DNA from: Escherichia coli
GTDB taxonomy: Bacteria; Pseudomonadota; Gammaproteobacteria; Enterobacterales; Enterobacteriaceae
NCBI RefSeq assembly: GCF_003334335.1
Contig: NZ_QOWQ01000127.1
Strand: one strand, 5' to 3'
Length of the DNA stretch: 1,035 bases
The position numbers and the translations under genes are program-made. Under the pieces are notes generated by a model that was given only the letters and a program-made list of their open reading frames with translations, searched no databases and was not told the DNA's origin. Each line of letters begins with the position of its first letter. Positions within the stretch are counted from its first letter, which is position 1. This document shows, piece after piece, positions 1 through 1,035 of this stretch.

Positions 1-119
1 TTACAGAAAAAATACCGCTCACCGCCCTGTACCGTCAGGTCGATTTCCCAGAGCACCACCCGCGGTGACTGCTCTGATTTAACCGACTCGTTCAGACTTT
101 CTTCGTGAATATCCTGCAT
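1..119 (-). CDS. L: Minor tail protein L (lambda gpL family), N-terminal 39 codons only. Partial: continues past the window start. ATG at 119..117.
   Basis: Seen in sequence: reverse complement of 1..119 translates from ATG as MQDIHEESLNESVKSEQSPRVVLWEIDLTVQGGERYFFC with no stop. This matches the N-terminus of lambda gpL as I recall it (MQDI...VVLWEIDLT...GGERYFFCNEQNEKG...). The start shares one nucleotide with the M stop (TGATG), and an AGGTGG SD-like motif lies 7 nt upstream. Confidence 0.88.
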   Translation of the reverse strand, partial: MQDIHEESLNESVKSEQSPRVVLWEIDLTVQGGERYFFC

Positions 120-448
120 CAGTTCACCACCTGCTTAAACTCCGCGCTGAACTCAACGCGCAACATCCCGACCCGCGCAGACCACCCGGCACAGGTCACC
201 TTTATCTGCCGGTATGCATAGGGTGGCTTCCACAAAAATGCCTTCCAGCCACCGTGCTCTGCCAGGAACGCTTCCAGATGCCGGGCCTCCTCCCGGGTCA
301 CGGAAAGCGTCACCCTGTATGTTTTCAGGTCAGCATTCAGCCCTGCCGCCATACGCTGTGAGTACCCGTCACCAAAACGCACTTCACGCACCGATGGCTG
401 CGAGTTCACCTCCATATCCGGTTTCACTTTCCAGCGAAAGGTTTTCAT
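119..448 (-). CDS. M: Minor tail protein M (lambda gpM family; tail tip assembly), complete, 109 aa. ATG at 448..446, stop TGA at 121..119.
   Basis: Seen in sequence: ORF of 109 aa, MKTFRWKVKPDMEVNSQPSVREVRFGDGYSQR...KVTCAGWSARVGMLRVEFSAEFKQVVN. From memory, lambda gpM is also 109 aa with near-identical N-terminal (MKTFRWKVKP), central (VRFGDGYSQR, EEHGGWK) and C-terminal (RQIKVTCA...MLRVEFSAEF.QVVN) blocks. A GGGGAG Shine-Dalgarno-like motif sits 6 nt upstream of the ATG. Confidence 0.93.
   Translation of the reverse strand: MKTFRWKVKPDMEVNSQPSVREVRFGDGYSQRMAAGLNADLKTYRVTLSVTREEARHLEAFLAEHGGWKAFLWKPPYAYRQIKVTCAGWSARVGMLRVEFSAEFKQVVN
127..132 (-). promoter_or_regulatory. Shine-Dalgarno-like ribosome binding site for L (AGGTGG on the minus strand), 7 nt upstream of the L start codon and embedded in the 3' end of the M coding sequence.
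   Basis: Seen in sequence: minus-strand reading ...cAGGTGGtgaactgATG. Function is inferred. Confidence 0.5.
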
Positions 449-1035
449 CGCCCGCTCCCCGATAACAGACCGCCATCACGCAACTGCAGCCGGAGCTCAT
501 CCTGCGCACCTTTACGGGCCATCTCATACACCGCTTTCATCAGCTGCGGCCCGGCCTGTCCGTTGATGCCGTCGTTCTGAATCACCACGTGATTGTTCTG
601 ATTAAAATTAATGCCTTCGGCCCGCCGCATCTGCGCCGGACTTCCGGCAGCACCCACATACCCCCCTTCCGCATAGCCCCGCATCAGGCGGTACAGGTTC
701 CCGACACCAATCCGGCTGGTTGCCTCCTTCGTGAAGACAAACTCCCCGCGGTGGACAATCCCCGCTGGCTCATATTTGCCACCGGTTCCCGTAAATCCCC
801 CGGTCGCGAAATGGAAGTTCGCCGCCGCAGCCTGAATGGCCGTCCCCGTGGAAGCGGATGCGCCACCACCGAAAGCACCACCAATGGCGCTGCCGATACG
901 CCCGACAATCCCCACCATCGCCTGCTTCAGAAAAATCTCTGTCAGCATGGAGAGCACGGAACGGGTGAAACCACGCCAGTTCTGTTCGCTGCCGGTCAGC
1001 ATCGCTGCCATATTCTGTGCAATACCGTCAAAGGT
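445..1035 (-). CDS. H: Tail tape measure protein, C-terminal portion (lambda gpH-like). Partial: the reading frame stays open upstream of the first in-window Met to the window edge at 1035 (TFDGIAQN precedes MAAMLTG...), so the true start lies beyond the window. Stop codon TGA at 447..445.
   Basis: Seen in sequence: long minus-strand ORF (track 445..1011, 188 aa from first Met) that my own translation extends without a stop to 1035. It ends ...LRLQLRDGGLLSGSGR* and its stop overlaps the start of a recognisable gpM homolog by 4 nt (ATGA). Position immediately upstream of M and L, plus the Gly/Ala-rich hydrophobic C-terminal region, fit lambdoid tape measure proteins. Identity is by synteny and recalled similarity, not by a search. 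Confidence 0.85.
   Translation of the reverse strand, partial: TFDGIAQNMAAMLTGSEQNWRGFTRSVLSMLTEIFLKQAMVGIVGRIGSAIGGAFGGGASASTGTAIQAAAANFHFATGGFTGTGGKYEPAGIVHRGEFVFTKEATSRIGVGNLYRLMRGYAEGGYVGAAGSPAQMRRAEGINFNQNNHVVIQNDGINGQAGPQLMKAVYEMARKGAQDELRLQLRDGGLLSGSGR
455..460 (-). promoter_or_regulatory. Shine-Dalgarno-like ribosome binding site for M (GGGGAG on the minus strand), 6 nt upstream of the M start codon and embedded in the 3' end of the H coding sequence.
   Basis: Seen in sequence: minus-strand reading ...tcGGGGAGcgggcgATGA. Purine-rich, SD-like motif at appropriate spacing; function is inferred. Confidence 0.5.
778..957 (-). other. Gly/Ala-rich hydrophobic segment within the tape measure C-terminal region (about 60 aa: VLSMLTEIFLKQAMVGIVGRIGSAIGGAFGGGASASTGTAIQAAAANFHFATGGFTGTGG), with small-residue spacing resembling glycine-zipper / GxxxG motifs.
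   Basis: Seen in the translated sequence: a run dominated by G, A, I, V, L, F, S and T with very few charged residues, including G-x-x-G-x-x-G-x-x-x-GG-x-x-GGG. A membrane-interacting or channel-forming role is inference; no prediction tool was run. Confidence 0.45.

Follow-up and report, generated by a model that had tools for sequence, protein, structure and literature searches.

The window analysed here, i.e. the whole stretch of 1,035 nucleotides, corresponds to the tail region H–M–L in a lambdoid prophage of E. coli, with all the real genes located on the minus strand. The tape measure gene H is present by its 3' part (positions 445-1035, minus strand), which codes for the last 196 residues of the protein, followed by the stop codon at 447-445; its open reading frame extends past the high end of the window, the N-terminal part of the gene lying outside. 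The gene M, coding for the distal tail protein of 109 amino acids, is found at 119-448 (minus strand) and was assigned from the PHROG minor tail protein families and the annotation of lambda and relatives. The tail tip gene L, identified from the translation and the annotation, begins in the window, its first 39 codons (MQDIHEESLNES...) being located at 1-119 (minus strand). The start ATG of M is overlapped by the stop codon of H (ATGA), and the start ATG of L and the stop codon of M share one base (TGATG); this H-M-L order, with overlapping stop and start codons, is the arrangement present in lambda. Escherichia phage PhiR12_2_star shares 99.5% identity with the window DNA, as do prophages of several E. 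coli chromosomes, and a related sequence was found in 3668 of the 5426 complete E. coli genomes (about two thirds). As tail regions of lambdoid prophages go, the window is ordinary. In the other frames and on the plus strand, the ORFs were short (34-74 amino acids) and without support, and these were rejected, the frame of H being fixed by the homology with gpH and by the 17:6 ratio of synonymous to non-synonymous differences from lambda.

The 196-residue product is collinear with residues 658-853 of lambda gpH, without any gap and with 162 identical residues out of 196 (phmmer, PDB 8iyk_H, E=5e-98). The NCBIfam model TIGR01541 scored 191 bits, compared to a curated cut-off of 104.75, and covered the query residues 1-156. 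The Pfam domain PF09718 (Tape_meas_lam_C) matched the query residues 1-44 (E=5.3e-8, model positions 32-75 of 76), its N-terminal part falling beyond the window. PHROG tape measure families also match the product, and records of phages and of E. coli annotate it as H; for several distant PHROG tape measure families, the match is confined to the area of the motif equivalent to gpH 733-785. By homology, the product is assigned to the lambda-type tape measure proteins, of which it is the C-terminal part, and the alignment with gpH bears out the preliminary description on this point. In lambda, the length of the tape measure protein sets the tail length, and the protein is cut to H* in maturation (PMC12617516). 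As in lambda gpH, the product exhibits in the same order a helix, a Gly-rich stretch, an invariant motif and a terminal helix. Past residue 785, the identity to lambda drops (18/32, then 24/36), the tip-binding end being a different allele.

Within this product, the feature under study is located at window positions 778-957 of the minus strand, which are 60 in-frame codons (VLSMLTEIFLKQAMVGIVGRIGSAIGGAFGGGASASTGTAIQAAAANFHFATGGFTGTGG) equivalent to gpH 684-743, so that the position and the frame first given for it were right; 110 residues separate its end from the C-terminus of the protein. Compared to lambda gpH 684-743, 54 of the 60 residues are identical, the substitutions being M688L, L692F, S703R, V712F, G720T and K730N (lambda residue first). 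The segment contains 14 glycine residues (23%), and small or hydrophobic residues account for 88% of it, compared to 59% in the rest of the 196 amino acids. Its only charged or ionisable residues are E, K, R and H, and a GGG triplet and an AAAA run are both present, in agreement with its earlier portrayal as almost entirely small or hydrophobic. In the full-length lambda gpH, the 60-residue window with the highest small/hydrophobic content is 683-742 (0.90 vs 0.60 overall) and the most Gly-rich one is 695-754 (0.28 vs 0.087 overall); the equivalent region of gpH being the most extreme of the protein, the segment does deserve to be called the most distinctive sequence feature of the window. At the DNA level, the GC content is slightly raised across the segment, as Gly and Ala codons would predict. 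No tandem DNA repeat was found in the region and the Rfam search gave no match at E<=1. The 60 codons differ from those of lambda by 17 synonymous and 6 non-synonymous differences, and this comparison of codons shows the whole segment to be under purifying selection within the lambdoid phages.

The glycine residues had also been described as regularly spaced, and for this we obtained no support above the level set by the composition. The segment contains four GxxxG and five GxxG motifs, numbers that are not above those of same-composition shuffles (P=0.31 and 0.13, respectively), and the Fourier periodicity of glycine at helical angles over the 60-mer was not significant (p=0.13). A weak glycine periodicity was obtained for the sub-stretch 696-722, with p values of about 0.01-0.04 uncorrected for 15 tests. 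We found also one motif of the GxxxGxxxG type, GSAIGGAFG (gpH 705-713), and ten matches to [GAS]xxx[GAS]xxx[GAS] in the segment.

A search over 1.84 billion cluster representatives gave 5072 proteins with the C-terminal module, and the conservation was analysed on an alignment of 78 long and diverse homologs with 35-50% identity. This alignment showed that the segment, which had been taken as a single 60-residue element, is made of three parts with different conservation. Part (a), the amphipathic helix VLSMLTEIFLKQAMVGIVG (gpH 684-702, window 901-957, minus strand), is the end of the Tape_meas_lam_C domain. In the homologs, its hydrophobic positions alternate with charged or polar residues at positions 686, 690, 694, 699 and 702, and it was on this alternation, present in most homologs, that the helix was classified as amphipathic. 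Part (b), delimited from the homolog alignment and the pLDDT values, is the uncharged linker rich in Gly, Ala and Ser RIGSAIGGAFGGGASASTGTAIQAAAANFH (gpH 703-732, window 811-900, minus strand). In the 78 homologs, it contains 25% Gly, 16% Ala, 15% Ser and 4% charged residues (DEKR), with a length of 13 to 44 residues; the alignment occupancy falls in this part, and the composition rather than the sequence is conserved. Four relatives with 50-54% identity (P0011, P0013, P0017 and P0018) are devoid of 710-732, and in these proteins the helix runs almost straight into the downstream motif. The glycine residues G709 and G713, conserved in 81% and 62% of the homologs, respectively, both belong to the motif [SA]A[ML]GW[IV]xG of a large subgroup. 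Family-wide, 167 GxxxG motifs were observed vs 123 expected (z=5.3, a value inflated by the shared ancestry of related sequences), and this excess comes from the conserved [SA]A[ML]GW[IV]xG motif. Where lambda has Ser703 (AGT), this DNA carries an Arg codon (CGT, window 898-900, minus strand), a charge that is rarely met at this place of the hydrophobic stretch. When the close cluster representatives that cover the site are compared, Arg is found only in the query and in P0001, nearly all the others having Ser.

Part (c) is the motif F-A-x-GG[YF]TGxGGKYEPAG[IV]VHxGE[FY]V[F]TKEATxRIGVxNLxxLMRGYAxGGxVG (gpH 733-785, window 652-810, minus strand), which is near-invariant in the homologs. The segment takes in no more than the first 11 residues of the motif (window 778-810), and its own last eight residues, GGFTGTGG, belong to it. 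The residues G736, G737, T739, G740, G742, G749, V751, H752, E755, V757, G767 and L771 are invariant in the 78 homologs, and a second alignment (A1) gave nearly the same list for part (c). As to whether the segment might be low-complexity sequence lacking conservation across tape measure homologs, the answer differs between its parts: the Gly-rich half is low-complexity and its composition is conserved and not its sequence, while the helix half and the last eight residues are well conserved.

The structure of the product was then predicted as a monomer by AlphaFold2 from an alignment of 39 sequences, and the model was poor overall (mean pLDDT 54.9, pTM 0.22). A helix was predicted for the query residues 17-53 (gpH 674-710, window 877-987), with a pLDDT of about 70 for residues 21-40, and the pLDDT was below 50 over gpH 709-737. 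Rather than disorder, low pLDDT may be a sign that the oligomeric or membrane context is lacking. The prediction also recovered the terminal helix (query residues 164-185, gpH 821-842), an internal control against cryo-EM. In the preliminary description, structure prediction of the C-terminal part had been proposed as a check on the segment: a helix was indeed obtained over 674-710, but the Gly-rich part that follows exhibited no confident structure. The C-terminal helix itself (gpH 818-849, window 460-555, minus strand) is visible in PDB 9e7m, whose chain Ha matches the query residues 162-192. In the lambda virion, this terminal gpH helix forms a coiled coil of three chains that rests on the gpI plug (PMC10721106, PMC12617516), and the N-terminal part of gpHC, approximately residues 690-817, is unresolved in all the lambda cryo-EM maps (PMC12617516). 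Phage T1 behaves likewise, the region equivalent to the segment being invisible and only the extreme C-terminal helix being resolved.

The segment had been put forward as a candidate for membrane insertion or oligomerisation, and its membrane propensity was evaluated with the Kyte-Doolittle scale over 19 residues (KD19, cut-off about 1.6), the sum of the Hessa biological scale (insertion at or below 0) and the Wimley-White octanol scale. The best 19-mers of the window gave a KD19 of 1.48 and a Hessa sum of +6.1 kcal/mol. The corresponding values were 1.53 and +4.4 kcal/mol for lambda gpH 696-714, 1.59 and +3.7 kcal/mol for the N-terminal stretch 113-132 of lambda gpH, and 2.67 and -2.9 kcal/mol for the transmembrane helix of glycophorin A, used as a control. 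The scores of the window are below those of lambda mainly because Arg replaces Ser703. The best Wimley-White octanol sum of the window was -0.4. In lambda gpH, 696-714 is the second most hydrophobic stretch, only 113-131 being higher (1.59). Among the homologs, the KD19 was at least 1.6 in 21/78 and the Wimley-White octanol sum was negative in 61/78, and none had a Hessa sum below +3.4. On the simple scales (KD19 and Hessa), the segment is too weakly hydrophobic for a membrane span and scores far lower than a canonical transmembrane helix. The hydrophobic moment across 684-743 was modest, at most 0.36.

The hydropathy of the segment resembles that of the glycine-zipper peptides of VacA, PrP and A-beta, and since these peptides score alike, simple hydropathy is insufficient as an argument against an oligomeric membrane-active role. 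Some genuine zipper peptides also score poorly on simple scales. The membrane propensity first ascribed to the segment was found to be weak and sub-threshold, and yet its glycine-zipper-like hydropathy stood. In the published lambda work, the transmembrane prediction for gpH 691-712 was considered 'much less confident' and the N-terminal stretch 116-140 was favoured, and gpH* gained protease resistance in LamB liposomes (PMC12617516). During injection, contact is made between the tape measure protein and ManYZ of the inner membrane. In the lambda strain that bypasses ManYZ, the mutation of gene H at nt 11,451 corresponds approximately to codon 304, outside the segment; a second H mutation, at nt 11,828 (approximately codon 429), lies likewise outside.

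We compared the segment with other systems. Kim et al. reportedly described in 2005 transmembrane glycine zippers, i.e. (G/A/S)xxxGxxxG motifs, in VacA, PrP, A-beta and channel proteins. The segment is similar to these zippers by its GSAIGGAFG motif (705-713), its small-xxx-small runs and its comparable hydropathy. It differs from them in that its spacing is at chance level, natural relatives can do without the stretch and disorder is predicted for it. The profile of alignment A1, compared to PDB chains, had its matches in lambda, in T1 and in a further tape measure protein. T1 gp38 (PDB 9l9p_B) and PDB 25vf_5 (profile 1-84, E=1e-12 and 2e-26, respectively) both carry Tape_meas_lam_C units and share with the segment a helix followed by a Gly/Ser-rich stretch, and both matches end at profile positions 81-84, before the GG[YF]TGxGGKYEPAG motif. 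Unlike in the segment, the unit of helix and Gly-rich stretch is repeated three times in 25vf_5.

For the T5 tape measure protein pb2, the same profile, compared to all PDB chains, gave no T5 chain at E<=1, and the comparison is a functional one ('works like') only. In T5, pb2 is cut after R1127, directly past a 46-residue hydrophobic stretch proposed to insert in the outer membrane; the fragment pb2C stays on the hub plug in the tip, and its last ~35 residues form a trimeric coil (PMC10038345). The two proteins resemble each other in the order of a hydrophobic Gly-containing stretch, a cut, which from the fragment masses would fall within or just past this stretch in lambda, and a C-terminal fragment. 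They differ in that the T5 stretch is 46 residues long and predicted as two transmembrane helices (PMC10038345), unlike the segment, and in that a metallopeptidase motif is present in pb2C, no muralytic activity being known for lambda virions (PMC10038345, PMC12617516).

In lambda, gpH is processed into gpH* and a fragment of ~14 kDa, gpHC, by a cut in the glycine-rich region (PMC12617516). The masses computed for a cut at 710-724 are 77.7-78.8 kDa and 13.5-14.6 kDa, which fits the published 78-79 and ~14 kDa. The cut might lie just outside 703-732, because masses from SDS-PAGE are imprecise. Of the proteins considered here, such a cleavage has been demonstrated for those of lambda and T5 only. 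The segment is probably a flexible processing hinge, or junction, between two functional pieces of the tape measure protein, and we give this reading a probability of roughly 60%. It builds on the identity with gpH, the three-part anatomy and its conservation, the nearby cut and the position of the terminal helix. The computed fragment masses, the deletions of 710-732 in relatives, the low pLDDT over 709-737, the part of gpHC that is invisible in the maps, the purifying selection and the layout of T5 pb2 speak for it as well. The amphipathic helix closes the long, mostly helical ruler part of the protein; the uncharged, probably flexible Gly-rich linker comes next, and then the conserved motif that opens the C-terminal piece, gpHC. 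In lambda, once the tail is assembled, gpH is cut in its glycine-rich region; gpH* fills the tube and is later ejected, forming a conduit across the envelope, and gpHC (~14 kDa) keeps its terminal helix in the tail tip, on the gpI plug. Most likely the linker acts as a hinge accessible to the protease, uncoupling the ruler from the tip anchor. After the cut, the hydrophobic stretch ~691-712 would be at or near the new C-terminus of gpH*, proximal to the tip, and would be the first to exit the tail. We infer a cut within 703-732, a disordered linker, and selection for its flexibility or accessibility. The low content of charged residues (4%), the conserved bulky hydrophobic residues W, I and F, and the conservation of G709 and G713 are left unexplained by a pure flexible-linker role.

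A more elaborate proposal would give separate roles to the small-residue stretch and to the downstream motif. The stretch ~691-715 would be the leading end of six gpH* chains, the first to enter the membrane and nucleating the DNA channel as a counterpart of T5 pb2*, and the GG[YF]TGxGGKYEPAG[IV]VHxGE[FY]V motif would be the recognition or catalytic element of the cleavage. Both ideas agree with the present data, and we consider this combination unlikely.

The main competitor of the processing hinge is a reading in which the segment is a membrane-active glycine zipper: the gpH* copies would pack their small-residue faces, insert in the outer or inner membrane and form or anchor the DNA conduit. 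This is suggested by the rank of 696-714 as the second most hydrophobic stretch of gpH, by the near absence of charges in the homologs and by the homologs that pass the KD19 cut-off (21/78) or have a negative octanol sum (61/78), but the KD19 of 1.48 and the Hessa sum of +6.1 of this window are sub-threshold, no homolog goes below +3.4, and Arg703 lies within the hydrophobic core here. The family-wide GxxxG excess (z=5.3) and the conservation of G709 (81%) and G713 (62%) are also consistent with a zipper; against it, the periodicity of glycine in the single sequence is at chance level and the enrichment in the family is inflated by shared ancestry. The helix half is not uniformly apolar, with a charged or polar position conserved at intervals of 3-4 residues, and the Gly-rich half carries indels, is deleted in natural relatives and is predicted to be disordered, with a pLDDT below 50 over gpH 709-737. 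The hydropathy shared with the VacA, PrP and A-beta peptides points towards a zipper. So do the protease resistance of gpH* in LamB liposomes and the published low-confidence transmembrane prediction at 691-712 (PMC12617516), together with the T5 pb2 stretch, which has the same relative position and is proposed to insert in the outer membrane (PMC10038345). However, the same recent lambda study favours the N-terminal stretch 116-140 (PMC12617516), the ManYZ-bypass mutation is at approximately codon 304, and in phage TP901-1, whose tape measure protein has two hydrophobic regions, the deletion of one of them affected infectivity little (PMC5099701). Taken with this evidence on both sides, a membrane zipper in the hydrophobic half is possible and rather doubtful.

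The TP901-1 work also bears on the idea that the segment is an element of assembly inside the phage, i.e. a self-association element or a patch for the gpG/gpGT chaperones that would keep the tape measure oligomer together in the tube, and a unit that tape measure proteins can repeat, without any role in the membrane or in processing, the hydrophobic regions of TP901-1 having been judged likelier to serve in chaperone recruitment and assembly than in membrane insertion (PMC5099701). The unit made of TTGK-x-SF-x-DF-x-S, a hydrophobic helix and GxxGW, found as three tandem copies in PDB 25vf_5 and also in phage T1 gp38, which is without the downstream motif, argues for this idea, and the heptad-like hydrophobic pattern of the homologs suits a coiled coil. 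The variable length of the Gly-rich part and the location of the cleavage are nevertheless left unexplained by it, and as an account of the whole segment we regard it as quite improbable. An assembly role would mainly concern part (a) and is compatible with the hinge role. Finally, the segment might be nothing specific, i.e. a chance low-complexity run, a product of compositional drift, or a feature of another frame or strand, as the chance-level spacing of its motifs and the short ORFs of the other frames and of the plus strand might suggest. Against this stand the frame fixed by end-to-end homology with gpH, the 17 synonymous vs 6 non-synonymous codon differences from lambda, the composition, which is maintained across thousands of relatives (the module is matched by 5072 cluster representatives), and the absence of a tandem DNA repeat and of an Rfam match. 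Such an origin is hardly conceivable, and we rejected chance and a wrong frame on the gpH homology, the conservation in homologs, the linker statistics and the 17:6 ratio.

The segment is a real and distinctive feature, and one that is already known as the glycine-rich processing region of gpH (PMC12617516). The window brings nothing new in kind; lambda itself and thousands of relatives carry the same region. The dissection into three parts, the relatives without the Gly-rich part and the near-invariant downstream motif are potentially useful for the design of experiments. The passage of siphophage DNA across the cell envelope is as yet only partly understood, and the segment is an obvious candidate for the site of cleavage of gpH and for the contact of gpH* with the membrane.

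The strongest conservation of the entire C-terminal module of gpH, the tape measure protein, was found in a near-invariant motif, GG[YF]TGxGGKYEPAG[IV]VHxGE[FY]V[F]TKEATxRIGVxNLxxLMRGYAxGGxVG, which follows the Gly-rich stretch immediately and covers gpH residues 733-785 (window 652-810, minus strand). Within this motif, His752 and Glu755 are invariant. The motif corresponds to no separate Pfam domain and is not resolved in any structure. P0088, a homologous protein retrieved in the search of cluster representatives, gave four matching stretches, and motif-like sites were present in its sequence near residues 558 and 716.

The comparison with lambda showed an identity of 93-98% up to residue 785, versus 56-67% (18/32 and 24/36) for the following region, gpH 786-853 (window 445-651, minus strand). 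Because identity falls after residue 785, the terminal helix that binds the tail tip plug gpI is an allele different from that of lambda. The sequence comparison thus suggests a mosaic joint in the tape measure protein near this residue, and the terminal-helix allele might possibly co-vary with the gpI type. Midway along the hydrophobic stretch, the window carries an Arg codon (CGT, 898-900, minus strand) versus AGT for Ser703 in lambda; among the close cluster representatives covering this position, Arg was otherwise found only in the homolog P0001.

The closest phage record, PhiR12_2_star (PV340551.1), is 99.5% identical to the window; two overlapping CDS are annotated there for gene H (locus 1518-4090). 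The H frame is intact in the window. Query positions 1-1032 are matched by 1031 bases of PhiR12_2_star, one base fewer than in the window, and this implies a frameshift near window positions ~583-631. In the close relative PhiR12_1 (PV340549.1, locus 4672-6684), an insert of about 2 kb was observed between the tail genes L and K. It carries four small genes, of which two are encoded on the opposite strand and one is annotated as an antirepressor; this insert is a moron-like insertion within the tail tip operon.

The unit composed of TTGK-x-SF-x-DF-x-S, a hydrophobic helix and a GxxGW/Gly-Ser stretch is present in three tandem copies in another tape measure protein of 612 aa (PDB 25vf_5) and in a single copy in gp38 of phage T1 (PDB 9l9p_B), and therefore acts as a repeatable module rather than as a unique C-terminal element. 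The Gly/Ala-rich stretch of about 23 residues (gpH 710-732) is missing from four homologs of 50-54% identity (P0011, P0013, P0017 and P0018), in which the helix is followed by about 10 residues (e.g. DSATTAMGFAG) and then by the invariant motif. These four proteins are natural deletion variants and could inform mutagenesis.
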